A stretch of 64,000 nucleotides of DNA from Nitrososphaeria archaeon (lineage in GTDB: Archaea > Thermoproteota > Nitrososphaeria > JACIWG01), in the NCBI GenBank assembly GCA_050011875.1, contig JBEKIG010000002.1:66822-130821 (forward strand), given 5' to 3'. The position numbers and the translations under genes are program-made. Shown here in pieces: positions 2,938 to 28,104 of the stretch. Below the pieces are notes generated by a model. The model saw only the letters and a program-made list of their open reading frames with translations. It was not told the DNA's origin and made no database searches. Numbering within the stretch: the stretch's first letter is position 1; the number at the start of each line of letters is the position of its first letter.

Positions 2938-3651
2938 GTGAACATCGCCGCTGTTTCCTTTGACGTGTGGGACACTCTTCTAAGGCTCAAGCCTTTCTAT
3001 TTTAGGATTGCTAATGAAATCGGCTTAGAGAACAATAATAGCCCAACTAAGGTCTACGAAGATATGTTGAAGAATTATGCGGTGTTAAAAGAATATAGAA
3101 GTAAGGGAATGCTAAGGTATGACGATATCGTTAACCATTGTTTGGAATTGTCATCGGAGAATTTAGGTATCGATATAGAACTTCTAAAAAGGTCAATAAC
3201 GAGAACCATCCTTAATGTTGAGCCAAATGAAATTCTTGTTAAAGAAGCGCCTCAGGTATTAAGTGAACTTAAATTTCAAGGGAAACGGATTGTAACGCTT
3301 GGGAATCTTATCTTCTGGCCTGGTTATTATAATAGGATTCTTTTAGAAAGAACTGGTTTGACTAAGTACTTTGACTTTCAGCTATATGCGGATGAAATAA
3401 AATTCTCAAAGCCTAGTAAAGAAATTTTTTTGAGGTTGTGTCATGTGTTAAGTCTTGAACCTCAGAGAATTGTTCACATAGGAGATAATAAGATAGAAGA
3501 TTATGAAGGAGCATTAAATGCAGGTTTCTACGGAATCTGGCTAAATCCCTTGTATAATAATGGTGTTGAGATCGTGAATAAAAGTGCGATAGTGAATTCA
3601 ATATCTCACATACCTAAGGTTGTTAAAGTATTTGATGGGGATCTAAACTAA
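2938..3651 (+). CDS. HAD-superfamily hydrolase
   Basis: Motif I (FDVWDTLL) and a C-terminal GDN..D motif are present. Confidence 0.6.
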   Translation: MNIAAVSFDVWDTLLRLKPFYFRIANEIGLENNNSPTKVYEDMLKNYAVLKEYRSKGMLRYDDIVNHCLELSSENLGIDIELLKRSITRTILNVEPNEILVKEAPQVLSELKFQGKRIVTLGNLIFWPGYYNRILLERTGLTKYFDFQLYADEIKFSKPSKEIFLRLCHVLSLEPQRIVHIGDNKIEDYEGALNAGFYGIWLNPLYNNGVEIVNKSAIVNSISHIPKVVKVFDGDLN

Positions 3652-5806: not shown

Positions 5807-6218
5807 CTTAATCCTTAGCTTATTAATACAAAAGAATATTAAACTTTTCTTTTTCAGGCTCTGTCAAGTCTCCGTTTGGTTTTATAGGCTGTAAAAAATC
5901 GTTTGGTAGATTCTAATATTCTTGGTGTTAATTAGACTAACATGGCTTTAGTTAGATAGCTTTAAATAATGACTTTTGGTAACAAAGTTACCATAAAAAG
6001 CTTTTTATGCCATCCTTTAAAAAAGGGTGCAGGCGGTGGGGTAAGAGGTGCTTACCCCATCACCTTCTTTCTGCCATTTGGACAGTATTCAGCTATACCT
6101 TCCACGTCCCCATTTTAGTAGAAATGGCACGACAGATGCTAATATTGCAACTAACGAGTAGTCAATTGCAAATGTCACCACCATTCCTATCATGAGGGAC
6201 AGTGTGAAGGCTACTTTG

Positions 6219-7538
6219 AGGTGCAAAGTAAACCGTCGCTTTGAATTAATATACACTCAGTTATAAAGTGTTATCTTAGTATGTTGAAAGAATGGTCAAA
6301 TATCTTTGCTTGCGTTTTGAATTAGTGTTATCCACTTGTTATCTCCTTTTACTTCAATTCCACATCGATCTGCGGGTGTCTTCCCTTCTAATGCTTCATG
6401 TGGTCTTATGTAGTTATGATATATCTGATAGCCTTTAAGAATAGGTGTATCTGTTTTCTTTAATCCTCTCATAACCTTCTCTCTATCTCTTATCTCTCCG
6501 TTCATCCTCTCCATCTTATTGTTGTGAACTTCCCCACTTAACCGAATTTCTCTTATGTGCTTTGTTCTTGGGTTATGTTTAGTGTAGAACTCTTTCGTGC
6601 ATGCGTCTTGGTATGCTCGCAGTCCATCTGTTATTATGGTAAGAGGTTTTTTTCCAGATATTTCTTTTCCCATTTTGAAAAGGTTTCTTGCGTCATGAGT
6701 ATATTTTGTGTCCGCTACCTCTTGAGCAATCCAATATCTCGTTTCATCATCCATAAGAGCGAAGAGGTATTTCATATTCCCTTTAACCTTAACCCATAAT
6801 TCGTCAGCTCTCCACGTATCGCTAACATTTGGTTTCAGTTTCTCTACATAGTTTTCCATGAGTGAGATGTATTTCTTTATCCAATTATAGACGGTCTGAT
6901 GTGAGACCTCGACACCTAAGAGTCTTAAAGATTCCATCGTGTTTCTCAAAGATTCTCCGTTAAAGTATAGTTGCATAGCTGAGGTTATTGCTTGAGGGTT
7001 ATGTTTCATCTTCTCAAAACCTATGTTAATAGTAAAATATTTACCACATTCTTTACAGTAGAACTTTTGAATATCGCCAAACTTATTGTGTCTTATACCC
7101 CACTTCATCAAGTTCTGAGAGCCACAGAATATGCAACTTGAAATATTTGTGATAGGCTCAATTTTCCTAACCTCAACTTCCTTTCTTATTGAAAGGGAAA
7201 ATTCAACCGCAAAAATATGCTTACATTTCACACCTCTAAAAGTATAGTCTGGGCAAGAACATTTCCAGCCTAACTCTGTGCTGAAAACATCATAAACACC
7301 ATTACCACTTTGAGAATTAACTTTGTAAGAGTGTTCATCTATTCTCTTTACCTCTGTCCTCTTTTCACATATCATTTTCCCAAGTTGTTCACGAAGGTTC
7401 GTTTCCATTTATGCATCGCTATATACCTATACACAGGTATATTATATAAACTTATGCCTATTAGAGTGAACATTTATATACCTAAGACAAGCATAGGATT
7501 ACCATGAGCCTATTAAGCACAGCGACTTTTGCAAGTCC
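6219..7538. mobile_element. IS6-family insertion sequence (approximate ends)
   Basis: The transposase gene is flanked by imperfect inverted termini GGTGCAAAGT (left) and, reverse-complemented, GGACTTGCAAAAGT (right). Both resemble the IS6/IS26 terminal consensus GGCACTGTTGCAAA. No target-site duplication was found. Confidence 0.4.
6296..7408 (-). CDS. IS6-family DDE transposase with an N-terminal SWIM-type zinc-finger domain
   Basis: The IS6 pattern is present (DELWVKVKG..YLFALMD, then TDGLRAYQ, then NNKMERMNGEIRDR, then YHNYIRPH). N-terminal CSCPDY..CKH Cys/His clusters form the zinc finger. Confidence 0.8.
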   Translation of the reverse strand: METNLREQLGKMICEKRTEVKRIDEHSYKVNSQSGNGVYDVFSTELGWKCSCPDYTFRGVKCKHIFAVEFSLSIRKEVEVRKIEPITNISSCIFCGSQNLMKWGIRHNKFGDIQKFYCKECGKYFTINIGFEKMKHNPQAITSAMQLYFNGESLRNTMESLRLLGVEVSHQTVYNWIKKYISLMENYVEKLKPNVSDTWRADELWVKVKGNMKYLFALMDDETRYWIAQEVADTKYTHDARNLFKMGKEISGKKPLTIITDGLRAYQDACTKEFYTKHNPRTKHIREIRLSGEVHNNKMERMNGEIRDREKVMRGLKKTDTPILKGYQIYHNYIRPHEALEGKTPADRCGIEVKGDNKWITLIQNASKDI

Positions 7539-14678: not shown

Positions 14679-15422
14679 ATGACAGAGAAGAAAGAAAAGA
14701 AAAAAGACGTAGGTCAAATGACTAATGTTGAAATAATGCAGGAACTTAGAAATTTTGATACTGCCACCATATGTAACGTTGTTGCTACATATCCGGGAAG
14801 TGACATTTGCCTAAAACTATATGACGCATGGTATGGAGAATATTACACTGATCTGAATCTCCATTGCATGTACCCAGACCTTGGTCCATTGTGTGGTTAT
14901 GCTGCGACAGCCTGGTATTCCCAAGAATCAGCTGATTATACTAAACTAGATGAGTGGTTGTTGTATGATCATCTGGACTTGAGTAATAAACCGATAATTC
15001 TAGTTACCAAGCAAACATATCCTCCTGAACTAGTTGATTCGTCAGGCCTTTTCGGGGGAAATATGACTTCCCAGTTTAAAGCAATGAAAGTAATCGGTAT
15101 TGTCACAGACGGCCCCATGAGAGATTATGAAGAAATAAAAGAGATGAAAGTACAGTATCTTGCTAAAGGACTTACTTCTGGACATGGCCCGCTAATGCTG
15201 AGAGGAGCCAACATACCGATTAGGGTCGCTGGAATGTCTGTTTCACCAGGCGATATAATTCATATGGATATCTGTGGAGCAGCAAAGTTCCCTGAAAAAT
15301 ATCTTCAAAAAGTATTAGAGTATGCTATTGAACTCAGAAATAGAGAGGTCAAGCACCAAAGCATGTTCCAAGACCCTAACTTTAGTTATAAAAAATGGAA
15401 GGAGAGCTCCAAGAAATACTGA
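14679..15422 (+). CDS. RraA-like family protein (4-hydroxy-4-methyl-2-oxoglutarate aldolase / MenG-like)
   Basis: The motifs TATICNV, GPMRDYEEI and SPGDIIHMDICGAAKFP match RraA family signatures. Confidence 0.55.
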   Translation: MTEKKEKKKDVGQMTNVEIMQELRNFDTATICNVVATYPGSDICLKLYDAWYGEYYTDLNLHCMYPDLGPLCGYAATAWYSQESADYTKLDEWLLYDHLDLSNKPIILVTKQTYPPELVDSSGLFGGNMTSQFKAMKVIGIVTDGPMRDYEEIKEMKVQYLAKGLTSGHGPLMLRGANIPIRVAGMSVSPGDIIHMDICGAAKFPEKYLQKVLEYAIELRNREVKHQSMFQDPNFSYKKWKESSKKY

Positions 15423-15465: not shown

Positions 15466-16449
15466 TTACCGTTCAATTGAACAGTACATCTTTTCTCCTT
15501 TCTTTTTTACTTTAATAAGTGTCTTAACTTGTATACCGAACTTATCTAGAACCTGTTGTTTCCCCTTATAAATTTCCTTCTCCATTATACATGCGACATC
15601 AATTATTTTGACACCCTGTTTTTGGAAAGTATCGATCAAAGAAATTAATGTACCTCCGGTTGATATCGTGTCATCGATTATTAGTATTCGGTCGCCTGCT
15701 TTAACACTATATATGTAGTATCTTCCTTTCTCATAACCGGAAGAATATTTTACTTTATCTAAGAGGTAGTCGGTTGTGCCAAAAGGTCTCTTCCTTATGA
15801 TCGCCATAGGTTTTCCTTTACTTTGAGCTACGAGCGTAGCTATTGGTAAACCTAATACTTCAGGCACCACCACCTTATCAATTTCGTCTGAAGTTCTATC
15901 ATTTATTTCGCTTGCTATCCAGGACAGTGTTCTAGGACTTGGGGGAGGCACGTGTTTTGTAATCCTATTTAATATGAACTCGTATACCTTCCTCGAACCG
16001 TCTTTCACCCAACGCCTTCTAATTATTTTTGCATTTTCATAATACGAGGTTATTTCAGAGACTATTTCTTCATCATATTTCTTTTTCAGCGTTTGCGATT
16101 GTCTTATTTCTCTGAAGAAACATGTAACATTTCCTGTGTGACAGGTCGGTCCATATGGGTCGACCATATAAAGTATGGTATCATTGTCGCAGTCTACTCT
16201 GATCTGTACAACTTTAAGAAGATTTCCGGATGTTTCACCTTTCATCCATAACTTTTTCCTTGATCTACTCCAGAAATAGCCGAATCCCGTCTCTAAAGTT
16301 CTGTTTACAGCCTCTTTGTTGGCATAGGCGATCATAAGGACCTTGTTTGTTATAAAATCTTGCACGACAACAGGAACGAGACCGTTTTCCCCAAATTCTA
16401 TGTCCTCTTTTTCAACTGCTCCGTATGTTTTCATGTAATCCTTACACAC
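15466..16449 (-). CDS. hisI: Phosphoribosyl-AMP cyclohydrolase (HisI) fused to a type I phosphoribosyltransferase domain
   Basis: The N-terminal roughly 115 aa form the HisI fold (..WSRSRKKLWMKGETSGN..CDNDT..). The C-terminus carries the PRPP-binding motif ILIIDDTISTGGTL. It is the last gene of the his operon and overlaps hisF by 19 nt. Confidence 0.7.
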   Translation of the reverse strand: MCKDYMKTYGAVEKEDIEFGENGLVPVVVQDFITNKVLMIAYANKEAVNRTLETGFGYFWSRSRKKLWMKGETSGNLLKVVQIRVDCDNDTILYMVDPYGPTCHTGNVTCFFREIRQSQTLKKKYDEEIVSEITSYYENAKIIRRRWVKDGSRKVYEFILNRITKHVPPPSPRTLSWIASEINDRTSDEIDKVVVPEVLGLPIATLVAQSKGKPMAIIRKRPFGTTDYLLDKVKYSSGYEKGRYYIYSVKAGDRILIIDDTISTGGTLISLIDTFQKQGVKIIDVACIMEKEIYKGKQQVLDKFGIQVKTLIKVKKKGEKMYCSIER

Positions 16450-17147
16450 ACTCCTCTGTCGGCAAGATATTTTTTCACAGCTTGCACGGGATACTCGTTA
16501 AAATGGAATATTGACGCGGCCAGCACAGCGTCAGCCTTCCCTATAGTAACCGCTTCATATAGATGCTGTGGGTTTCCTCCACCTCCACTCGCTATGACCG
16601 GGATGTTAACGTTTGAAGATACAAGTGAAGTTAATTCAAGGTCGTATCCGATCTTTGAGCCATCCCTATCTATCGATGTTAGAAGGATCTCCCCTGCCCC
16701 AAGCTTTTCCACATTCACAGCCCAATCCCTCACATCAATTCCCCTCGCTTTGCGGGCACCGTGAGTATAAACCTCAAAGCCCGAATGCACGCTTTTCGAG
16801 CGTTTCCCATCTATAGCTACAACCACACACTGGCTGCCATATTTGTTAGCGAGCTCGGTTATTATGGTGGGTTTTTCGACAGCCATAGTATTTATTGACA
16901 CTTTATCGGCTCCATTCCTCAAAATTGAATATGCATCATCCATGCTTCTTATCCCACCTCCGACAGTAAACGGAATATCTAGAACTTCTGCAACGCTCTT
17001 GACAACGCTTAGTAAAGTTTTTCTTGTTTCGATTGTTGCTGTTATATCTAAAAAGACTATCTCATCAGCGTTGTCATTTCTGTACTTAAGTGCCATTTCA
17101 ACAGGGTCGCCCGCTACTTTCAAGTCGACAAAGCTTTTTCCTTTCAT
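16431..17147 (-). CDS. hisF: Imidazole glycerol phosphate synthase cyclase subunit
   Basis: The (beta/alpha)8 HisF pattern is present (DEIVFLDITAT.., GGGIRS) and the gene sits in operon context. Confidence 0.85.
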   Translation of the reverse strand: MKGKSFVDLKVAGDPVEMALKYRNDNADEIVFLDITATIETRKTLLSVVKSVAEVLDIPFTVGGGIRSMDDAYSILRNGADKVSINTMAVEKPTIITELANKYGSQCVVVAIDGKRSKSVHSGFEVYTHGARKARGIDVRDWAVNVEKLGAGEILLTSIDRDGSKIGYDLELTSLVSSNVNIPVIASGGGGNPQHLYEAVTIGKADAVLAASIFHFNEYPVQAVKKYLADRGVCVRIT

Positions 17148-17187: not shown

Positions 17188-17907
17188 TTAGCTACACTCG
17201 TTTCTGGTCACCTTTAAAGCGTCAGAGATGTCAATTAATCTATCGTATATTACTCGGCCGAGGATTACCCCCCTGATTTTATAATTTTTCAAGACTCTGA
17301 TATCGTTTAATGAAGAGATTCCGCCTGCAACATAAATTTGTTCAGAGAAATCATGTAACAGGTCCAAGTATGAAGTATCAAGGCCTGTTAGTGTACCATC
17401 CCTTTGAACGTTTGTTGAAAGAAATAACCTGAAACCTTGATTCCAAAGACCTTGGATTGTGGGTTGAAGCTCAAGGGCTAATTTTTTTTTCCAGCCATTT
17501 ATGACAATCTTTCCCTGTGAATGATCTATGGCAACAATTATTTTTTCTGCACCAAATTTTAACAACTCTGCGTGATCAATTTGACCTGTAAATATCCCAG
17601 TTCCGATAATAGCTCTGCAAGATCCTATTTCAAATATCTTTTCTACGTCCCGTATGCTATGTAGTCCGCCTCCCACCTGAATTTTTATATTAGATTTCTG
17701 AATAATTTTCCTAATTACTTCAGAGTTACTTCCTATTCCTAAAGCTGCATCAAGGTCTATAATGTGTAGGCCGTCGACCTTCATTTTCTCCCAATTTTCA
17801 GCGGTTTTAACTGGGTTATCGCTGTAAACTATCATTTTCTCTTGTTCACCTTTTACTAACCTTACAACCTTTCCTTTCATTAGGTCAACTGATGGCCATA
17901 CTTCCAA
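17188..17907 (-). CDS. hisA: ProFAR isomerase
   Basis: A HisA-like TIM barrel (SVDLMKGKVVRL, VGGGL) in his operon context. Confidence 0.8.
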   Translation of the reverse strand: MEVWPSVDLMKGKVVRLVKGEQEKMIVYSDNPVKTAENWEKMKVDGLHIIDLDAALGIGSNSEVIRKIIQKSNIKIQVGGGLHSIRDVEKIFEIGSCRAIIGTGIFTGQIDHAELLKFGAEKIIVAIDHSQGKIVINGWKKKLALELQPTIQGLWNQGFRLFLSTNVQRDGTLTGLDTSYLDLLHDFSEQIYVAGGISSLNDIRVLKNYKIRGVILGRVIYDRLIDISDALKVTRNECS

Positions 17908-17911
17908 TTTC

Positions 17912-18514
17912 TCATCTCTTTACGTACTTAATAAAATTCTCCAATATTTTTTTTCCTACATCTCCCGACTTTTCAGGATGAAATTGTGTTCCAAACAAGT
18001 TTTTCTTTTCGACAACTGAAGTGAATTTTGAGCCATAGAATGTCATACCTGTCTTAATAGAATCGTCTTTTGGTTCAGGATAATACGAGTGAGCAAAGTA
18101 AACCCACCTCGGTTCATATATATGATTGAGTAAAATGCTGTCCTTATTTAATTTAACTGAGTTCCATCCCATATGCGGTATTTTTACACCATTGCTAAAT
18201 CTAATTACTTCACCTTCGAATATGCCTAACCCATCACCCGGTCCCTCTTCACTTCGTTCAAACATGAGCTGAAGCCCAAGACATATTCCAAGCAGGGGGA
18301 CACCTTCTTCGATCGCTTCTATGATCTTGTTTTTGACTTTCTCCATGGTTTCGCAGGCTGATGAAAAACTTCCGACACCTGGAAGAATGATCGCGGAATA
18401 TTTCCTTAAGTCATAATTTTTTGGAATGACATCAACATCGACGTTGAGTCTTCTAAGTGAAGATAGAAGACTAAACATGTTGCTTGCTCCATAATCTATT
18501 ACAGCAAATTTCAT
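17912..18514 (-). CDS. hisH: Imidazole glycerol phosphate synthase glutamine amidotransferase subunit
   Basis: A class I GATase with GICLGLQ, and HSY near the C-terminus. Confidence 0.85.
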   Translation of the reverse strand: MKFAVIDYGASNMFSLLSSLRRLNVDVDVIPKNYDLRKYSAIILPGVGSFSSACETMEKVKNKIIEAIEEGVPLLGICLGLQLMFERSEEGPGDGLGIFEGEVIRFSNGVKIPHMGWNSVKLNKDSILLNHIYEPRWVYFAHSYYPEPKDDSIKTGMTFYGSKFTSVVEKKNLFGTQFHPEKSGDVGKKILENFIKYVKR

Positions 18515-19090
18515 CTACATCTTGCCTTTGGAGCTAGGAATACCTTTCCGTTTCCGATCTACTTCCCATGCTTCGCTTAAAGATAGGGCAAGACCTTTGA
18601 ATACCGCCTCGACCTTGTGATGATTGTTTGTGCCTCTCAGAACATTTACGTGCAATGTAAATTTTAGCGAATTCGCTAGAGTCTCAATAAAATGCGGTAT
18701 GTCTTCTGAAGCCATATCTTCTATTTGTCCGCTCCATAAATCAAGTTCTATATCTGAGAATTGGCGCGTGACTAAATCGATGCTCACGAGTGCCAAAGCA
18801 TCGTCCATTGGAACTATTGAATACCCAAACCTCTTAATACCATTCCTGTCGCCAAGCGCTTGTCTTAACGCTTCCCCTAACGTTATCGCGACATCCTCAA
18901 CTATGTGATGACTTAGATCACCTTTTGCTTTAATTTCGAGGTCAATATAGCTGTGAACAGCAAGCTCACAAAGAAGGTGGTCTAAAAATCTTATACTGGT
19001 GTCTATGTTGGTTTTACCATCCCCATCTATGTTCAACTTTATCTTGATTTCAGTTTCTTTGGTTTTTCTCTCAACAGTTGAAGTTCTCAT
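18515..19090 (-). CDS. hisB: Imidazoleglycerol-phosphate dehydratase (monofunctional)
   Basis: HisB-type His/Glu-rich motifs are present (RFLDHLL, SHHIVEDV) in his operon context. Confidence 0.85.
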   Translation of the reverse strand: MRTSTVERKTKETEIKIKLNIDGDGKTNIDTSIRFLDHLLCELAVHSYIDLEIKAKGDLSHHIVEDVAITLGEALRQALGDRNGIKRFGYSIVPMDDALALVSIDLVTRQFSDIELDLWSGQIEDMASEDIPHFIETLANSLKFTLHVNVLRGTNNHHKVEAVFKGLALSLSEAWEVDRKRKGIPSSKGKM

Positions 19091-19091
19091 G

Positions 19092-20189
19092 TTATGTCAC
19101 CGTAAATCCCCTTGTATATAACGTTGCGAGGTCATCGACTGACTTCACAATCAAATCTGCGCCTTGCTCTATAAAGAATTTTTCGACAGCCAAAGGATCT
19201 TCCTTGAGTCCTGTTATACCTGCAAACATAATTTGAGTTAAACTTTTTTTTGCGTTATTAGCCATTAGAACATCCTCAGATGAGTCACCGACATATAATG
19301 TAACAGAATTTCCAGCTAAATTTAGAAGCGGTAAAGGAGAAGGTTTTTTCATCGGAATTGCCTTTTTGTTGTCTCGTCTGACAACATCCTCTATAAAGAT
19401 TGAAGAATCAAGGTCAAAATATTCTATGAGAGATCCTAAAACATGTTCTACGCCAATTCTTGAACGCCCTGTAAGCATAAAAAAAGGTAAACCGATATCT
19501 GTTCCAAGCTTTTTAAATGATTTTTCGTTTACCGCCGCTCTCTCATTTCCAATTAGTCCTTCCCTAGTCAATATAGGTCTTGAGCCATAGATCTTCTTAT
19601 AAATTTTGTTACCATAGTATATCGAATCGAAAAGTTTAACGAGTGAACTCTTTGAAGGATTTAATGGTACACCGAGTTCTTCTATTAATTGCTGGAATTC
19701 ATCCAAAGTTCCTTTTTTATTACATGTCGATATTGCGTATTTGTCTACATCAGAGATCGGATCAGTTTTAAGAGAGCTGAGGAAAGTCTTAAATTGTAAC
19801 TGCAATGACTTCTCGTTTATTTCTTCGCTCGCCTGATTAAACCCGCCACATTTCAACCAAAATAGGATTGCTTTTGCCGATTCCCTTGACAGCTGTGAAA
19901 AAATGAAGACTGTCAAGGCGTATACAGCATCCCACTCGTTGTTATAGAGCCCGCTTTCCCTCAATTTTTCAATCTGCGTTCGATCTATAGGTGATTTTTT
20001 CCTCAGGGGCCTAAAAATGTAGTTGAGAACTTCAATTATCGTGGAGTCATACGAATTTCTTGAATCAACGAGAACGCCATCGCAATCAAATACTAGGTGA
20101 TTAGCTGAATTTAGTTTACCCAAGCTCCTGTTAAGCAACAATGCTCTCCCCTTGCTCAGTCTGATTTCTAAATAGTTATTGACTGACAA
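19092..20189 (-). CDS. HAD-superfamily phosphatase with a large cap domain, embedded in the his operon (candidate histidinol-phosphatase)
   Basis: Motif I is VFDCDGVLVDS and the C-terminal motifs are K..GDSSED. It overlaps hisC by 14 nt and ends 1 nt from hisB. Confidence 0.6.
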   Translation of the reverse strand: MSVNNYLEIRLSKGRALLLNRSLGKLNSANHLVFDCDGVLVDSRNSYDSTIIEVLNYIFRPLRKKSPIDRTQIEKLRESGLYNNEWDAVYALTVFIFSQLSRESAKAILFWLKCGGFNQASEEINEKSLQLQFKTFLSSLKTDPISDVDKYAISTCNKKGTLDEFQQLIEELGVPLNPSKSSLVKLFDSIYYGNKIYKKIYGSRPILTREGLIGNERAAVNEKSFKKLGTDIGLPFFMLTGRSRIGVEHVLGSLIEYFDLDSSIFIEDVVRRDNKKAIPMKKPSPLPLLNLAGNSVTLYVGDSSEDVLMANNAKKSLTQIMFAGITGLKEDPLAVEKFFIEQGADLIVKSVDDLATLYTRGFTVT

Positions 20190-21243
20190 TCTTCTTCACT
20201 AGTTTGAAAAAAGTTTGGTTCATTTCACCTGTTCCGACTGTAACTCTAAAATAGTGTTCGCCGAATATCTTCCCAATGTTCCTAATCATTACGCCCTTAT
20301 CGTACAATTGATTATAGAATTTGTCAGGGTCAATAGGAGAGCGGAAAAGTATAAAGTTCGCCTCTGATTTGTAGGCTTCAACCCCCACCGATTTAAGGTC
20401 GTTATAGAGTTTTTCCCTTTCAACCTTAAGTCTATCGACCGCATCTTCTATGATCTTTCTGTTTTGAAGAAGCTTGATGGCGATTCTAGCAGAGAAGTTT
20501 ACGATGGGGTATGTTAACTGAGCAACAGTTGAGATCGGCTTCGATATTTTGGGGTTAGCTATCATGTAACCTATTCTCAATCCAGCTAAGCCATACGACT
20601 TCGAGAAAGTTCTCAATACAATAAGATTTTTATATTCATTAATCAAAGAATAAACGGAGTATTTTGCGAAATCAACGTATGCTTCATCGACGACTACGAG
20701 ACCGTCAAGTCTGTTAACCACTTCTCTTACAATCTCTATGGGAAACTGATTGCCTGTTGGATTATTTGGTGAACAAAGTATGACTAATGTGGCCCCCTGT
20801 CCTTCTTGAACAAATTTATCGAGGTCCAAAGAGAAATCTGGTTTAAGTGGCACAGCTACATATTCACCTCCATTAAAAATTGTCCTATAGCGATAAACTG
20901 GAAAGGTGGGGAAGATTGAGACAATTTTTTGTTCCGGGGCAAAAATGTTAAGCAGTATGTCGATGAGCTGATCTTCTCCAGAACCCACAGTAATACTGTC
21001 TTCACCCAAATTTAGAAACCTTGAGAGAACCTTAATTAATTCAACGTTTTCTATATTTGGGTAGAGCCTTAAATCAACTTCATTAAGCACTTCTTCAGCT
21101 AATCTTCTTAGAAGATCTCTGTCCATAAGAAAATTCTCGTTAGCATTAAGCCTTAGAATTACATTTTCCACGTCTTCCATGGGATAGAATTCGTACTTGT
21201 TCAAGTTTTCGAGCCTATCAGCTACTACCCTGTTAAGCATCAT
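20176..21243 (-). CDS. hisC: Histidinol-phosphate aminotransferase
   Basis: A class I/II aminotransferase pattern (NANENF.., TFSKSYGLAGLRIGY) in operon position between hisD and the HAD gene. Confidence 0.8.
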   Translation of the reverse strand: MMLNRVVADRLENLNKYEFYPMEDVENVILRLNANENFLMDRDLLRRLAEEVLNEVDLRLYPNIENVELIKVLSRFLNLGEDSITVGSGEDQLIDILLNIFAPEQKIVSIFPTFPVYRYRTIFNGGEYVAVPLKPDFSLDLDKFVQEGQGATLVILCSPNNPTGNQFPIEIVREVVNRLDGLVVVDEAYVDFAKYSVYSLINEYKNLIVLRTFSKSYGLAGLRIGYMIANPKISKPISTVAQLTYPIVNFSARIAIKLLQNRKIIEDAVDRLKVEREKLYNDLKSVGVEAYKSEANFILFRSPIDPDKFYNQLYDKGVMIRNIGKIFGEHYFRVTVGTGEMNQTFFKLVKKIVSQ

Positions 21244-22556
21244 TTTCTTCCCACTAAATATTCTATTGACTTCAAATGGTTAGTTAGTCCTTCTGAGGAA
21301 GCTAACGTCTTGATCGTTGGTAACGATTTAACGATCCCAGACTTCGACGCTATGACCACTCTAACCAACTTAATATAGTCTAACACGTTTAATCCGCCTC
21401 GATTTAACGCGTAACAGTCAGTTGGAAGAACATGATTTACTCCTACGAAATAGTCCGTCACAACACTCGACGAATTAACTATGATCACTCCGGCATTTCC
21501 AATTTTGTCTACGATTCGATTAAAATCTTTTGAAATTACTTCAAAGTGTTCAGGGGCAAAACCGTTAACGAAATCAACTACGGTATCTACGCCATCAGCA
21601 ACGATAACAAATCCCTTGCCTTCGAGAGCTGCTGTGACTATTTCTTTACGGTCCACGGTCCCAATTATCTTTGATACCTCACTCACTACTTTTTCAGCCA
21701 GCTCTTGGGAACAGGTTATGAGCCCGCAAACAGAGTCTGTTCCATGTTCCGCTTGAGATATTAAATCTAGAGCGATAGACTTAGCATCGGCTCCACTATC
21801 TGCATAGATTATTATTTCTGTAGGCCCAGCTGGCATGTCTACTTGAACGTCTCTTGTAACTATTGTTTTAGCTTTTGTAACATAAGCATTACCGGGACCA
21901 ACTATCTTATCAACTGGCGCTATTGTCTCTGTGCCGTATGCAAGGGCTGCGATAGCCTGCGCACCTCCGATCCGGTAAACTTCTGAAGCACCCGCGATAT
22001 CGGAGGCAACAAGCATCAATGGAGTGAGTTTATTTGGCGGTGTTGCAACAACTGTTCTTTCTACACCGGCTACTTTGGCCGGAACCACGGTCATCAATAG
22101 TGTACTTGGATACGATGCCTTCCCACCGGGGATATAGCATCCCACACTACGGATAGGTCTTGTTGTCTGACGAATAATGAAACCATTAGCTTTAAGTGTT
22201 ATGTTCAGTCTATCCTTTGTTTTTTTTTCTAATTTCTGAATGTTCTTTTTTAAGGTATATAGCGCTCGAACCTCTTTTTCATTTACCTTTCTATAAGCCT
22301 GTTGTATTTCTTCCTGAGTAATTCGAAGCAAATTTTGCCTTAAAGATATGCCATCAAATTGCCTTGTGTATTCTATCAGAGCATTATCACCCCTTTTTCT
22401 AACATCGTCCACTATTTCCACAACCTTTTTGTCAAGTTCAATATCCAAATCAGATTTCTTTCTTACTTCATTTAGTACATGATCTATATCGTTCTTAGCT
22501 AGTTTGAAGAATTTCATGTCATTTTCCACCGTTTTCTTCTTTGGCGATATCCTCAA
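21240..22556 (-). CDS. hisD: Histidinol dehydrogenase
   Basis: A 438 aa protein with the HisD pattern (..QAEHG..), overlapping hisC by 4 nt. Confidence 0.85.
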   Translation of the reverse strand: MRISPKKKTVENDMKFFKLAKNDIDHVLNEVRKKSDLDIELDKKVVEIVDDVRKRGDNALIEYTRQFDGISLRQNLLRITQEEIQQAYRKVNEKEVRALYTLKKNIQKLEKKTKDRLNITLKANGFIIRQTTRPIRSVGCYIPGGKASYPSTLLMTVVPAKVAGVERTVVATPPNKLTPLMLVASDIAGASEVYRIGGAQAIAALAYGTETIAPVDKIVGPGNAYVTKAKTIVTRDVQVDMPAGPTEIIIYADSGADAKSIALDLISQAEHGTDSVCGLITCSQELAEKVVSEVSKIIGTVDRKEIVTAALEGKGFVIVADGVDTVVDFVNGFAPEHFEVISKDFNRIVDKIGNAGVIIVNSSSVVTDYFVGVNHVLPTDCYALNRGGLNVLDYIKLVRVVIASKSGIVKSLPTIKTLASSEGLTNHLKSIEYLVGRK

Positions 22557-23502
22557 GCGGCATTATCAGTTGGGGCTCGTGTACTACAAGACCTTGAGCC
22601 ACTTTTCGAAGTTTAGGTAGCAATCTTATGTAATCAGACCTGTTAATGATGGTGTTGACAGCATACCAACCGGGCTTAGAAAGGGGGCTTATCGTTGGAC
22701 CTTTAAGCCCAGGAAGCAGACTGATAAGCTCCTGTAGTTTACCCTCTTCAACATTGACAAATATGTGCAGCTTCTTGCTGCTTTCAATTACACCCCTAAA
22801 GAGCGCAACCACATCGTAGATCTTTTCTCTTTTATTTGGATCATTTAAAGAAGCTTTGTTAGCGATTAGAACCGCTTTAGACCTAACTATTACATCTATG
22901 GGTTTTAATCCGTTTTGTTCTAAAGTCGTACCAGTTTCTGACACATCAGCTATTGCATCAGCTTCTTCTGGAGGTTTAGCTTCTGTGGCACCGAAAGAAA
23001 GGTAGACTTGAACGTGCTTGTTATCACCGGTCTTCCACCATGGTGTTACAATAATTGGTTTCTCTCTGCCGTAGAGTTTTTTATATTCTCTGAGATCAGA
23101 TATATACCGAGACACGGATGATGGGTACTCCGTCGATATTCTAATGATCTTATCGGAAGCATGATATGATTCAAGAAGTTTCTCGAATGAATCTACGTTA
23201 ATTGTTTTTGGAACCGCTATCATAAGATTTACAGCACCATACTCCAAATTTAAAAGAACTTTTACACGCGCTTTAGTTTCTTGAACCCAGTCAAGGCCTG
23301 TTATTCCGATGTCATAAAGACCGTCGGAAACGTAGATAGGTATTTCCTGAGGTCTTAGAATCTTAAACTTTATCTCAGAGTCATCGGATGTGGGGCGATA
23401 GCTTCGTTCTTTTCCGTATATTCTAATAAACGCTTTCTCAAGAAAGTCGTAGGTTGACTTTTCAAGTGATCCTTTTGGTATAGCAAAAAGTATTCTAGAC
23501 AA
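22519..23502 (-). CDS. hisG: ATP phosphoribosyltransferase (long form)
   Basis: The N-terminal HisG pattern (AIPKGSL, TGLDW) is present. The 327 aa length implies a C-terminal regulatory domain. It is the first gene of the operon. Confidence 0.8.
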   Translation of the reverse strand: MSRILFAIPKGSLEKSTYDFLEKAFIRIYGKERSYRPTSDDSEIKFKILRPQEIPIYVSDGLYDIGITGLDWVQETKARVKVLLNLEYGAVNLMIAVPKTINVDSFEKLLESYHASDKIIRISTEYPSSVSRYISDLREYKKLYGREKPIIVTPWWKTGDNKHVQVYLSFGATEAKPPEEADAIADVSETGTTLEQNGLKPIDVIVRSKAVLIANKASLNDPNKREKIYDVVALFRGVIESSKKLHIFVNVEEGKLQELISLLPGLKGPTISPLSKPGWYAVNTIINRSDYIRLLPKLRKVAQGLVVHEPQLIMPLEDIAKEENGGK

Positions 23503-23747: not shown

Positions 23748-24992
23748 ATGGTAAAACATTTATTTCAGCGTTCTCTGCCACATCAGACGATGGGTTCAGA
23801 AAAAAAGAGTACAAATAAAAACAATAAGAAGTACAAGGGTTTTTCAACGGAAAGCGTGCACGGTCACGACTTTTATGAAGTCGAAAAAGGCCTTTTCAAG
23901 GTTCCTATATATATGACTGCAATATGGGAACAGTTCGACAGAGTTACTGGAAAGGAAAGAAAAACTGAAAGGAACGTTGATCTTAAATATTCTAGAGAAG
24001 AAAATTTGACTGTTAACGCTTTTGAGAAGGCACTTTGTAAACTTGAACAAGGGGAAGATGCTTTAGCCTTTAACAGTGGCATGGCGGCGATATTAACTGT
24101 TTATCTTAGCTATCTATCTTCAGATGACACAATTTTGATAACAAAGGAGAGCTACGGTTTAACGCAGCAACTAGCGAGAGACATGGGTAAATACGGTATT
24201 AAAACAATTTTAGCTGGTCCCGAAACCGATGATTTAGTTAATTCAATTGATAAGCACGTCAAAATGGTTGTTATTGAGACAATTACGAACCCTCTGCTAA
24301 AGGTTGTGGACGTTGATGAAATCGCCAAAAGATGTCTAGAGGTAGGTGCAAAACTTTTAGTTGACAACACCTTCGCTACACCTTTACTTTTAAAACCGCT
24401 TAAACACAACGCATGGATCTCGATGAACAGCTTAACAAAGTACATAGGTGGACACAATGACCTAATCGGAGGATCTATCGCATCAGATTCGAAGAGCATC
24501 TTAGAGCTTTTTGACTGGCGTAAGAAAATAGGCAATATAATGAACCCCTTTGAAGCCTTCCTTATGATAAGAAGCCTGCCAACTTTAAAGATCAGGTTCA
24601 TGCAGGAATCGAAGACGGCGAAGGAGCTAGCTGAATATTTGCTTAATCATAGGGGAGTTGAAGAAGTTTATTATCCAGGATTAAAGAACAGCCCTTACCT
24701 CGATGTCGCGAACAGGTTGTTCGAAGAGAAGGCGTATGGCGGTGTTTTAAGCTTTAAGATTAAGGGAGCAAAGGACGAGGTTTTAAGATTTCTTATGCGC
24801 CTACAGATCGTTAAAGCATCTCCGAGCCTCGGTGGCGTAGAATCACTGGCCACATACCCCGTTCTAAGCGCTTCGCGTGGCATGGAACCTGAGGTAAGAG
24901 AGGAGCTGGGCATAACTGAGAATCTTATAAGATTGTCTGTAGGTCTCGAAGATGTTGAGGATTTGAAGGAAGACATCGACAACGCACTATAG
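23748..24992 (+). CDS. Cys/Met-metabolism PLP-dependent enzyme (cystathionine gamma-synthase / O-acetylhomoserine sulfhydrylase family)
   Basis: The PLP-lysine signature SLTKYIGGHND is present. The true start may be the internal MGSEKK. Confidence 0.75.
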   Translation: MVKHLFQRSLPHQTMGSEKKSTNKNNKKYKGFSTESVHGHDFYEVEKGLFKVPIYMTAIWEQFDRVTGKERKTERNVDLKYSREENLTVNAFEKALCKLEQGEDALAFNSGMAAILTVYLSYLSSDDTILITKESYGLTQQLARDMGKYGIKTILAGPETDDLVNSIDKHVKMVVIETITNPLLKVVDVDEIAKRCLEVGAKLLVDNTFATPLLLKPLKHNAWISMNSLTKYIGGHNDLIGGSIASDSKSILELFDWRKKIGNIMNPFEAFLMIRSLPTLKIRFMQESKTAKELAEYLLNHRGVEEVYYPGLKNSPYLDVANRLFEEKAYGGVLSFKIKGAKDEVLRFLMRLQIVKASPSLGGVESLATYPVLSASRGMEPEVREELGITENLIRLSVGLEDVEDLKEDIDNAL

Positions 24993-25078
24993 AACACCTA
25001 ATTTACACAAATTCTATCGGAACTCTCTTTCCCACTAAGTACGGTGTATGTTATTGATAAATTTCAAGCCAAAGATTT

Positions 25079-25558
25079 TTACCCGCCAGGTCCACCGTGT
25101 AACACCGCATCTTTCCAGACCATATCCCATACAACATCTTCTGTAAGTGCTTCTTTTGACATTATCGCGTTTTTCAGCTCCTGAAATATCCTGTGATGTT
25201 TACCTTCATCTTCTAGTATTATATTAAGTATCATCTTTAACCTATAATCGTCAACAGATTGTATTATCTTTTTAACTCCGTCGTAAAGATGTGCCTCATT
25301 TTTGATGTGAAAGTCGATTTCTTCCTGGATTTTTTCAATGTCACTTTCAGGCACCATCTTCCTTTCTTTGTCTAGAAGATCTATTGCAGATAGATAGAGG
25401 TTAGAATGCTTCTCGGAATCTAAAGCTGTTACTTGGATAAGAGACTTAATCACGTTGCTATCTATTTGGTCGGCAAGTTTATGAAGCTTCTTAGATAGGT
25501 CATATTCTTCACCGACCATTTCGTTAAGAACGTTTCTGACATCAATTTTAATACTCAT
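25079..25558 (-). CDS. Hypothetical protein (possibly ferritin-like, with E..H motifs)
   Basis: A 159 aa acidic helical protein with two E-x-H-like clusters. No firm family could be assigned. Confidence 0.3.
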   Translation of the reverse strand: MSIKIDVRNVLNEMVGEEYDLSKKLHKLADQIDSNVIKSLIQVTALDSEKHSNLYLSAIDLLDKERKMVPESDIEKIQEEIDFHIKNEAHLYDGVKKIIQSVDDYRLKMILNIILEDEGKHHRIFQELKNAIMSKEALTEDVVWDMVWKDAVLHGGPGG

Positions 25559-26323
25559 GTTTTAAAAGTGTTCTTTAAAATATATATAAATCTTTACATA
25601 TTTATCGACATTGAGATAACCAAATAACTTACAAAAAGTTTTATTGAAGTTCAATTTAGCGTTTACGCTGCTGCCGACTAAATCCCAGACTAATGATTCT
25701 GTGAAAGGTTTAAAGAAAAAAGGTTTATTCTTGTAGAAGGTATAATATTTGATTTCTGTCAAAACCTTACAAGCTTTCTCTTTTACTCACAGAAATGTTT
25801 TCAGAAAATAGGGTGAAAAATTCAAGTTGGCAGCCGTGACTCTGGTTTACACCTATTTTCGTCCAAGCCGCGATAGCTTTACCTTCAGGTTTTGAACATT
25901 ATGATTAGGTTATATAGCTTATCTGATCAATAATATTTCAGTTAACCTAATCGACTGCACTTTTTTTAAACATGATAGAAGCTATTGAAAAAATTAGACT
26001 TTGAAATAAAGCTCAAATTCGCTATCGTGAAGAGTCTAGCTCTGTTTAAAATCATGAAACACCTTGGACTCAATGGTATTAGGTTACTAGTTAAACCTCT
26101 TGAGTTTACAACCGACTTAATATTCCGAATTTTCAAGTAGTTGTAATTTAATTCTTGAATTTATTTCTACACTTAGTTTATCCAACACTGTTTAAGAAAA
26201 AGTCAATCAGATGGGAGTGTTGGGTAAACTTTGTTTTGGGTTTATAATTAAATGTTAAGATTTCATGTGTAAAACAAGTGCAAAGGTGCTCCTTGTAAAA
26301 TGTTGCCCCCTATAGGGATTCAG

Positions 26324-26845
26324 TCAATGCAGTCCTTTGTCCCAAGGGAACACTTTATACTTCCGATAATAGTCAGCGATTCCTCCTTCAGTAATTATTT
26401 CTAGCATGAATTGAGGATAAGGTTTTATTTGATCGATTAAATTAATTTTTTCATCAGTTATTCTACCTTCAGCTAAGTCAATTGAAAGCACATCTCCATC
26501 CTTCACATTTTCGATAAACTTGGATGACGCAACAACCGTTGGTAGACCAACGTTCACTGAATTTCTAAAAAATATCCTTGCGAAGGATTCTGCTATTACG
26601 GCTTTCACACCAGCTGCTTTAAGCACTCTAGGAGCCTGCTCCCTGCTAGACCCGCAACCGAAGTTTTTGCCCGCAACTATAACACTGCCGACAGCCATTC
26701 TATCCCTGAGCTTAGGGTCAAGGTCTTCGAAAACAAACTTCGTAAGCTCACTTATGACCTGCGTCCTATATTTGTATTTCCCAGATATTATCAAATCAGT
26801 GTTTATATGGTCACCTAATTTAACGCATGTCGCTGTTATTTTCAT
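26324..26845 (-). CDS. leuD: 3-isopropylmalate / homoaconitate dehydratase small subunit
   Basis: The LeuD-type swivel domain with GKNFGCGSSRE is present. It overlaps leuC by 4 nt. Confidence 0.75.
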   Translation of the reverse strand: MKITATCVKLGDHINTDLIISGKYKYRTQVISELTKFVFEDLDPKLRDRMAVGSVIVAGKNFGCGSSREQAPRVLKAAGVKAVIAESFARIFFRNSVNVGLPTVVASSKFIENVKDGDVLSIDLAEGRITDEKINLIDQIKPYPQFMLEIITEGGIADYYRKYKVFPWDKGLH

Positions 26846-28104
26846 GTAACATCACCATATTTCCTTGGATCAGTTATCTTGCCCTCTAAGGCTGTTGCAG
26901 CTGCCGTTGCCGGACTAGCTAGGAATATCTTTGATGTACTTGCCCCCATCCTTCCTGTAAAGTTTCTATTACTAGTGGACACGGCGATTTCTTCTTCGCC
27001 TAGAAGCCCCATATGAGCTCCAATACATGGACCACAAGTCGGCGGACCAACAGTGCACCCTGCACTTACAAGTTTCTGAAGATAGCCATCTTTCAGAGCT
27101 TCCAAATAAAGCCTCCTTGAGGCAGGAATTACGATACACCTTACTTTAACATGTTTTCCTTCAAGGATTTTTGTAGCAACCTTAATGTCTTCAATTCGTC
27201 CATTTGTGCAACTGCCTATGAACACTTGGTCAACTTCCAAACCCTCGACCTCAGTTACGTTTTTAACGTTATCAACATTCGAGGGTGCTGCCACCATCGG
27301 TTCAAGCTTTCCAGCATCGAAGTATAGCTCTCTAACATATTTGGCTTCCTTATCAGATTTAATAGCTTCAAAGCTGACTATTCTGTTCTTAAGCCAAGAT
27401 TCTGTTTTTTCATTAAGTTCCATAGGGCATGCTTTTGCGCCCATCTCGACTGCCATATTAGCGATTGTCATCCTGCCATCAACGGAAAGTCCATCTATGC
27501 AAGAGCCGTGATATTCGACAGCTTCATAGGTTAGTCCATCTGCTTTAACCGCACCCAGAACCTGAAGAACGATGTCCTTTGACATAACCATGTTCCGAAG
27601 CTTTCCATCAACAGTGATCTTGACGGTCTCTGGCACCTTAAACCAGAGCTTCCCCGTTGCCATCGCTAAAGCTGCATCAGTGCTGCCGACGCCTGTCGCA
27701 AAGGCGTTGAAAGCGCCGTGTGTTACACTATGGGAGTCCGCCCCTATAACGACATTTCCCGGTTTAACATACCCTTCTTCAGGTAAAACTTGGTGACAGA
27801 TACCTGAACCGATATCAAAAAGTTTCAAACCTTGCTGTTTTGCGAACTTCCTTAAAGAAACGTGAATATTCGAAATCTGTGGAGATGGACTAGGTGCTGC
27901 ATGGTCTATGAAGAAGACGACTTTAGTTGGGTCAAAAACCTTCTTGATTCCCAGCTCTTCCATTGATTCGATGGCGAGCAACGCTGTGCCGTCGTGCGCG
28001 AATACGACATCAATATTTGATGTAACAAAGTCTCCTGAGGAGACTTCTTTCTTTCCCGACGATTTTGCCAGGATTTTCTCAACAATCGTTGACATAACTT
28101 TCAC
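26842..28104 (-). CDS. leuC: 3-isopropylmalate / homoaconitate dehydratase large subunit (aconitase family)
   Basis: A 420 aa aconitase-family protein with Cys ligands (..GSCTNG.., ..CGPCIG..). Confidence 0.8.
   Translation of the reverse strand: MKVMSTIVEKILAKSSGKKEVSSGDFVTSNIDVVFAHDGTALLAIESMEELGIKKVFDPTKVVFFIDHAAPSPSPQISNIHVSLRKFAKQQGLKLFDIGSGICHQVLPEEGYVKPGNVVIGADSHSVTHGAFNAFATGVGSTDAALAMATGKLWFKVPETVKITVDGKLRNMVMSKDIVLQVLGAVKADGLTYEAVEYHGSCIDGLSVDGRMTIANMAVEMGAKACPMELNEKTESWLKNRIVSFEAIKSDKEAKYVRELYFDAGKLEPMVAAPSNVDNVKNVTEVEGLEVDQVFIGSCTNGRIEDIKVATKILEGKHVKVRCIVIPASRRLYLEALKDGYLQKLVSAGCTVGPPTCGPCIGAHMGLLGEEEIAVSTSNRNFTGRMGASTSKIFLASPATAAATALEGKITDPRKYGDVT

Follow-up and report, generated by a model that had tools for sequence, protein, structure and literature searches.

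When histidine synthesis is reconstructed automatically, histidinol-phosphate phosphatase is still the step most often left without a gene, and it is missing in 20% of prototrophs (GapMind 2026 survey). In Thaumarchaeota, a then uncharacterised hydrolase gene lying between hisC and hisB was noted by Fondi et al. in 2009 (via PMC10804674). In Nitrosopumilus maritimus, the gene at this position, Nmar_1556, was studied by Kinateder, Mayer, Nazet and Sterner (Protein Sci 2024; PMC10804674), who purified its product and named it nmHisN. In vitro, nmHisN is a specific Mg2+-dependent histidinol-phosphate phosphatase (kcat 0.79 s-1, KM 73 µM), inactive on ATP, fructose-6-P, glycerol-1-P, glyceraldehyde-3-P, PLP, PRPP, D- and L-phosphoserine and phosphothreonine (PMC10804674). 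With the gene arrangement reported in 2009 and the N. maritimus enzyme characterised in 2024, the phosphatase gap was thus already closed.

Structurally, nmHisN is a HAD protein with a single large insertion, for which nine helices were predicted; it is held to be related to the smaller toHisN of Thermococcus onnurineus (Lee et al. 2008, cited in PMC10804674), its cap being unrelated to those of E. coli HisB-N or P. aeruginosa HisN (PMC10804674). Alanine scanning singled out Y24, D25, K56 and E64 as critical (the fingerprint) and I28 and I52 as accessory, I20 being the least important of the scanned residues (PMC10804674). In the sequence network of the same study (identity threshold 45%), cluster I gathers 154 sequences from Thaumarchaeota and Bathyarchaeota, and its fingerprint columns contain Y (98%), D (66%, the rest mostly N), K (64%) or R (32%), and E (54%) or D (46%) (PMC10804674). 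R at K56 and D at E64 are the residues of the characterised Thermococcus enzyme toHisN. K56R was accepted as compatible, and the fingerprints explicitly accepted are YDKE, YDRD and YDKD (PMC10804674).

The probable hisN gene within its cluster

The window analysed here, i.e., the whole stretch of 64,000 nucleotides, carries a his cluster of nine genes in the order hisG-D-C-N-B-H-A-F-I, all of them on the minus strand and either overlapping or separated by gaps of at most 40 nt:

22519..23502, minus strand: hisG, long-form ATP phosphoribosyltransferase (PF01634 + PF08029)
21240..22556, minus strand: hisD, histidinol dehydrogenase (ORF; syntenic PF00815 genes; tblastn 40-54% identity)
20176..21243, minus strand: hisC, histidinol-phosphate aminotransferase (TIGR01141 292.9 bits, cut-off 276.6)
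19092..20189, minus strand: hisN, putative nmHisN-type C1-capped HAD histidinol-phosphate phosphatase (by homology), 365 aa, TTG start
20138, minus strand: alternative hisN start, TTG codon 18, 348 aa, GGGGAG in front
18515..19090, minus strand: hisB, monofunctional imidazoleglycerol-phosphate dehydratase (PF00475 IGPD 1e-51; 191 aa)
17912..18514, minus strand: hisH (ORF; syntenic GATase genes)
17188..17907, minus strand: hisA (ORF; syntenic His_biosynth genes)
16431..17147, minus strand: hisF (ORF; syntenic His_biosynth genes)
15466..16449, minus strand: hisI (PRA-CH) + type-I phosphoribosyltransferase domain (PF01502 residues 39-112, PF00156 residues 178-309)

The first-pass annotation had described a HAD gene of 365 aa between hisC and hisB, coupled to hisC by an overlap and ending 1 nt from a monofunctional hisB, with a DxDGV motif I, a large cap and a C-terminal GDSSED motif. 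Most of this description is borne out. The reading frame is intact and encodes 365 aa from a TTG start, while its stop codon (19092-19094) is separated by 1 base from the ATG of hisB (19090). HisB itself (191 aa) is monofunctional, with an IGPD domain only and no phosphatase domain found in it using Pfam and NCBIfam. In the hisN product, motif I reads F34-D35-C-D37-G-V, motif II is T240 (in LTGRSR), motif III is K282 (in KKPSP) and motif IV is G301-D302-S-S-E305-D306, with about 190 residues between motifs I and II that are predicted by AlphaFold2 to form an all-helical cap. These four motifs are invariant or nearly so in alignment A1, which includes 21 homologues sharing 26-65% identity.

The overlap with hisC is the one element of the description that depends on the choice of the start codon. 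From the long start (20189), 14 nt are shared with hisC, the stop codon of which ends at 20176; from the short start, 37 nt separate the two genes and nothing is shared. Public gene calls on the identical sequence are themselves split between 348 aa and 365 aa, and the start codon is ambiguous. We favour the 365-aa form overlapping hisC because its first 17 residues are conserved in three homologues (P0002, P0004 and P0005, 49-66% identity; MSVNNYLEIRLSKGRAL vs. MFVDNFSEIRFKKGKVL and MYDRGYVRIRSKGRTAL) and are modelled by AlphaFold2 as a beta-hairpin (pLDDT 82-90).

With 29.2 bits against a gathering score of 26.4, the hisN product passes the Pfam HAD model PF00702. Such a weak score (29 bits) would be compatible with a non-catalytic or decaying HAD relic, retained by its operon position only, yet this is hardly credible for a protein that has an intact ORF, a confident AlphaFold2 model and all four catalytic motifs kept across homologues as distant as those of alignment A1.

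Predicted fold and cap residues

The AlphaFold2 model, built on alignment A1 (mean pLDDT 91.5, pTM 0.88), has a Rossmann-like HAD fold, and only HAD families match the protein by Pfam. Between D37 and T240, the cap is predicted to comprise about ten helices, i.e., nine of at least 7 residues (44-58, 70-77, 85-98, 102-114, 126-139, 146-159, 162-172, 182-201 and 222-232) plus one 4-residue turn (212-215), with no second insertion. Two other matches in the cap, one to an RGS-domain Pfam family (E 9e-4, below cut-off) and one to a Cas11b chain of the PDB (E 0.11), were treated as noise. The best full-length match found by Foldseek is 1QYI (E 4e-10, TM 0.62), followed by 6IAH (E 5e-8, target TM 0.74), and a search of the PDB with the family profile recovers 6IAH (E 6e-20) and 1QYI (E 3e-11 over residues 29-365). 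No HisB-N chain was found among the PDB sequence matches of the single-sequence and family-profile searches.

Other phosphatase types and family names were considered and set aside. A HisB-N type does not agree with a hisN that is a separate gene beside a hisB that is IGPD only, and the corresponding model, TIGR01662, reaches 16.8 against a cut-off of 44.6. PHP-type (HisJ/HisK) and IMPase-type enzymes (HisN of Actinobacteria and plants) were discarded, only HAD families being matched and the model having a HAD fold. As for phosphoglycolate phosphatase, the two equivalog models score 22.7 vs. 225 and 18.6 vs. 180 and cover the motif III-IV region only. The model TIGR01548 (HAD-SF-IA-hyp1), the name of which is applied by IMG to some Nitrosopumilus orthologues, aligns end to end (residues 32-313 vs. 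model positions 3-197 of 197) with 55.8 bits for a cut-off of 140.2; judged by these scores, the hisN product is a relative of TIGR01548, not a member of it by the NCBI criterion.

The hisN product shares with nmHisN a HAD core with DxD and a single large cap, all-helical, that follows motif I, as well as its genomic setting (hisC-N-hisB position, hisGDC-N-BHAFI order, monofunctional hisB), and at the fingerprint positions of the cap both have the same Y, D, E and two isoleucines. The window protein differs by its level of identity (27-29% to the proteins encoded between hisC and hisB in Nitrosopumilus), by R77 in place of K56 and S43 in place of I20, by about 40 extra cap residues (alignment columns around 118-150 and 183-190) and, if the long start is right, by a beta-hairpin of about 20 residues at the N-terminus. 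In the model, the fingerprint residues sit in the first three cap helices, and the extra insertion comes after these helices.

Likenesses to other described HAD proteins are more partial. The enzyme toHisN and the solved relative Tt82 of T. thioreducens (PDB 6IAH) are of the same HAD lineage, with the SYD motif and an arginine at K56, but they have 240 aa, a much smaller cap (seven helices per PMC10804674), a D at the E64 position and about 18% identity to the window protein; at the fingerprint positions, 6IAH has SYD and R...D, which is the toHisN pattern. HisB-N of E. coli and Gammaproteobacteria carries out the same reaction with the same superfamily chemistry (DxD nucleophile, Mg2+), but it is a domain of HAD subfamily IIIA joined to IGPD, its inserts are small and non-helical, and it is regarded as an independent recruitment (PMC10804674). 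Also catalysing this reaction as a stand-alone HAD enzyme, paHisN (PA0335) of Pseudomonas aeruginosa is phosphoserine-phosphatase-like, with two small inserts and a fingerprint (D16-D18-Y47) in another spatial arrangement, and it is not considered related to nmHisN beyond the superfamily (PMC10804674). Finally, 1QYI (Staphylococcus aureus Q8NW41, a structural-genomics HAD protein of unknown function) has a similarly large helical cap, but it is bacterial and only 17% identical.

To number the cap residues, we used as a reference the Nitrosopumilaceae ORF found between hisC and hisB at locus L009, counted from its TTG start, which reproduces all seven published numbers (I20, Y24, D25, I28, I52, K56 and E64). 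The tie to Nmar_1556 is therefore made through the described gene position and the matching residue numbers, not through its own sequence; in a second search, seeded with a Nitrosopumilus orthologue, none of the 120 matches listed out of 3282 is named N. maritimus. According to alignment A1, the equivalents in the window protein are S43, Y47, D48, I51, I73, R77 and E85. Across the 21 homologues, the column of Y47 is always Y (21/21), that of D48 is mostly D (17/21, R and N occurring twice each), those of I51 and I73 are I in 19 and 18 sequences, respectively, that of R77 is R (13) or K (8) and that of E85 is D (11) or E (10), a composition that matches the published logo. The window fingerprint is thus YDRE, with the nmHisN residue at three positions and the toHisN residue at the fourth, a combination absent from the explicit list of the authors (YDKE, YDRD, YDKD; PMC10804674).

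Homologues, gene order and assignment

Our search of 5.8 billion protein sequences returned 49 homologues of the hisN product. The nearest ones (41-66% identity) come from MAGs of uncultured Nitrososphaeria and “Thermoprotei”, while Nitrosopumilales proteins of 324 aa are recovered at 27-29% identity (E 1e-24 to 1e-30, 88% of the query covered). The homologues are the genes found between hisC and hisB in Nitrosopumilus, Nitrosotalea, Nitrosotenuis, Nitrosarchaeum, Cenarchaeum, Nitrososphaeraceae and Bathyarchaeia, and a genome scan (one genome per species) found at least 27 loci with the HAD homologue in these same taxa and in Caldarchaeum. The first-pass annotation had named, as a finding that would speak against its proposal, a PHP- or IMPase-type enzyme elsewhere in the genome together with the absence of the HAD gene from the his clusters of relatives. 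Using tblastn with the nine His proteins of the window, the HAD gene was observed in the his cluster, directly upstream of hisB, in 24 of the 27 loci listed. It is also immediately upstream of hisB within the his cluster in all four close relatives examined. The complete order hisG-hisD-hisC-HAD-hisB-hisH-hisA-hisF-hisI is identical at L001, which carries a 324-aa homologue, and at L003, where the homologue is 42% identical to the window protein. In three closer relatives (L033, L034 and L035), the HAD gene is upstream of hisB, and the flanking leuCD and cystathionine-synthase-like genes are common with the window. In L004, L012 and L018, the HAD homologue lies outside the his cluster, and L031 has a partial weak match only.

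Some loci show variations on this arrangement. At L034 and L006, hisC is missing from the cluster and the HAD gene directly follows hisD; at L013, there is no hisB after the HAD gene, and at L024 hisB lies 1.3 kb downstream. On a single contig, locus L022 (Bathyarchaeia) has two paralogous HAD genes (1698-2786 and 6001-7101), one between hisC and hisB and the other downstream of hisI. Finally, a 324-kb contig labelled as an uncultured Blastocatellia bacterium (L020, CALHAI010000004.1) carries a complete archaeal-type hisG-D-C-HAD-B-H-A-F-I cluster, the His proteins of which are 41-56% identical to those of the window; either this contig is misbinned or the whole his cluster was transferred into an acidobacterium.

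The first-pass annotation had proposed that the HAD gene is the missing histidinol-phosphate phosphatase, and this proposal draws support from the homology to Nmar_1556, from the same genomic position and from the cap residues. A scan of about 36 other ORFs of the window (at least 85 aa, a few excepted) revealed neither a PHP nor an IMPase domain. Taken together, the gene at 19092..20189 very probably encodes the HisN (EC 3.1.3.15) of this archaeon, of the nmHisN/toHisN type, and by homology its product is a new and divergent member of a known archaeal phosphatase family. Single-linkage clustering of a sample of 73 family members indicates how divergent it is: at 45% identity, the window protein belongs to a subclade of 15 members, hosted by uncultured, non-Nitrosopumilales Nitrososphaeria, which joins the Nitrosopumilales clade only at 35% (a value obtained from 73 sequences vs. 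506 in the paper, so that bridging sequences may exist). As far as alignments can tell, the differences of this subclade are ordinary within the family and leave the catalytic motifs untouched; since they do set it apart from the characterised enzyme, we infer, by comparison, that histidinol phosphate is the substrate there too.

The enlarged cap might instead have shifted the specificity of the phosphatase towards another substrate, e.g., phosphoglycolate, phosphoserine, a sugar phosphate or a nucleotide. Along with the extra insertion of 40 residues, this reading could invoke the name given to the identical protein by one public source (“phosphoglycolate phosphatase-like HAD superfamily hydrolase”), the position of the subclade apart from the nmHisN clade at 40-45% identity (in the 73-sequence sample) and Tt82 (6IAH), which is the closest solved protein by sequence, the second by fold after 1QYI, and is reportedly of broad specificity. 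We nonetheless consider a different substrate unlikely because each of the six specificity positions has either the same residue or a conservative replacement and because the hisC-hisB position is kept across lineages sharing less than 30% identity. Moreover, the phosphoglycolate phosphatase models score about one tenth of their cut-offs, the insertion is placed beyond the three cap helices that bear the fingerprint, and nmHisN was inactive on phosphoserine and phosphothreonine, on sugar phosphates and on PLP, PRPP and ATP (PMC10804674).

Following HAD chemistry and the work on N. maritimus, HisN would act as a monomeric, Mg2+-dependent HAD phosphatase. Attack by D35 on the phosphate group of L-histidinol phosphate would yield an aspartyl-phosphate intermediate, which is then hydrolysed, with D37 as the probable general acid/base, T240 and K282 binding the phosphate, and D302, D306 and D35 together holding Mg2+. 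Specificity is expected to come from the first three cap helices, in which Y47, D48 and E85 may contact the imidazole ring, R77 could take the role of K56 in nmHisN, and I51 and I73 would serve as accessory hydrophobic residues. Presumably translated within the tightly packed hisG-D-C-N-B-H-A-F-I unit, HisN would receive its substrate from HisC and deliver its product to HisD.

In public resources, the window protein and its relatives go by the names “hypothetical protein”, “HAD family hydrolase” and “phosphoglycolate phosphatase-like”; for instance, the identical protein in a Nitrososphaeria archaeon MAG is MGD0329089.1, a “hypothetical protein”. The 2024 assignment has yet to reach annotation pipelines. 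Assigning the gene to an nmHisN-type HisN closes the phosphatase gap for this lineage, and its value is that of an annotation correction, not of a discovery.

The HisE step and the surroundings of the cluster

Two further statements of the first-pass annotation, namely that all the other steps of the pathway are encoded in the operon and that the phosphatase is the only step without an assigned gene, do not hold. In neither the operon nor the roughly 36 ORFs scanned in the window (at least 85 aa, a few ORFs excepted) did we find a PRA-PH (HisE) domain, and the phosphatase is not the only gap because HisE is absent from the operon too. The last gene combines HisI with a phosphoribosyltransferase domain, and the bifunctional HisIE model aligns to the HisI part alone (model positions 6-122 of 208). 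Hence, no gene visible within the window accounts for the step that links HisG to HisI.

The phosphoribosyltransferase domain of the HisI fusion is adenine/hypoxanthine-PRTase-like and falls below every NCBIfam cut-off. The fusion is in frame and recurs at L003 (11710-12645) and L035 (10712-11677); neither L033 nor L034 has it, nor does any of the Nitrosopumilales and Bathyarchaeia loci, in which HisI is about 110 aa long. To our knowledge, this HisI-phosphoribosyltransferase fusion has no earlier description.

Some HAD enzymes are pyrophosphatases, and members of this kind (BT2127) occur among the distant fold matches of the hisN product. Combined with the missing HisE domain in the operon and in the scanned ORFs, this might suggest a dual role, in which the histidinol-phosphate phosphatase would also have phosphoribosyl-ATP pyrophosphohydrolase (HisE) activity. 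Such a role covering the HisE step is speculative and, in our view, highly improbable: the fold matches of the BT2127 type are weak (TM 0.36-0.39), and archaeal hisE often sits elsewhere in the genome, the scope here being 64 kb. In addition, neither ATP nor PRPP was hydrolysed by nmHisN (PMC10804674). It also appears quite unlikely that the long-cap subclade with R at the K56 position is not strictly isofunctional with nmHisN, with the 40 additional cap residues conferring a second or altered substrate that would, at the extreme, extend to the HisE step. For the window gene, the reading as HisN is the one that we retain.

On one flank of the his cluster lies an RraA-like gene (window 14679-15422, plus strand), which, among L033-L035, is seen only at L033. 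The other flank (window 23748-28104) includes a gene of the cystathionine-gamma-synthase family, a small ORF and leuD/leuC-like aconitase subunits; the small ORF is devoid of family matches in the window, and its counterparts at L034 and L035 have a weak Rubrerythrin match or none. Further away, the window has a second HAD gene (2938-3651, plus strand, 237 aa), an ordinary HAD-IA protein that lacks the large cap and is unrelated to the his cluster, its best models (REG-2-like and TIGR02253) being both below cut-off. Lastly, a 370-aa ORF (6296-7408, minus strand) combines a SWIM zinc finger with a DDE_Tnp_IS240 transposase domain and is probably an insertion sequence.
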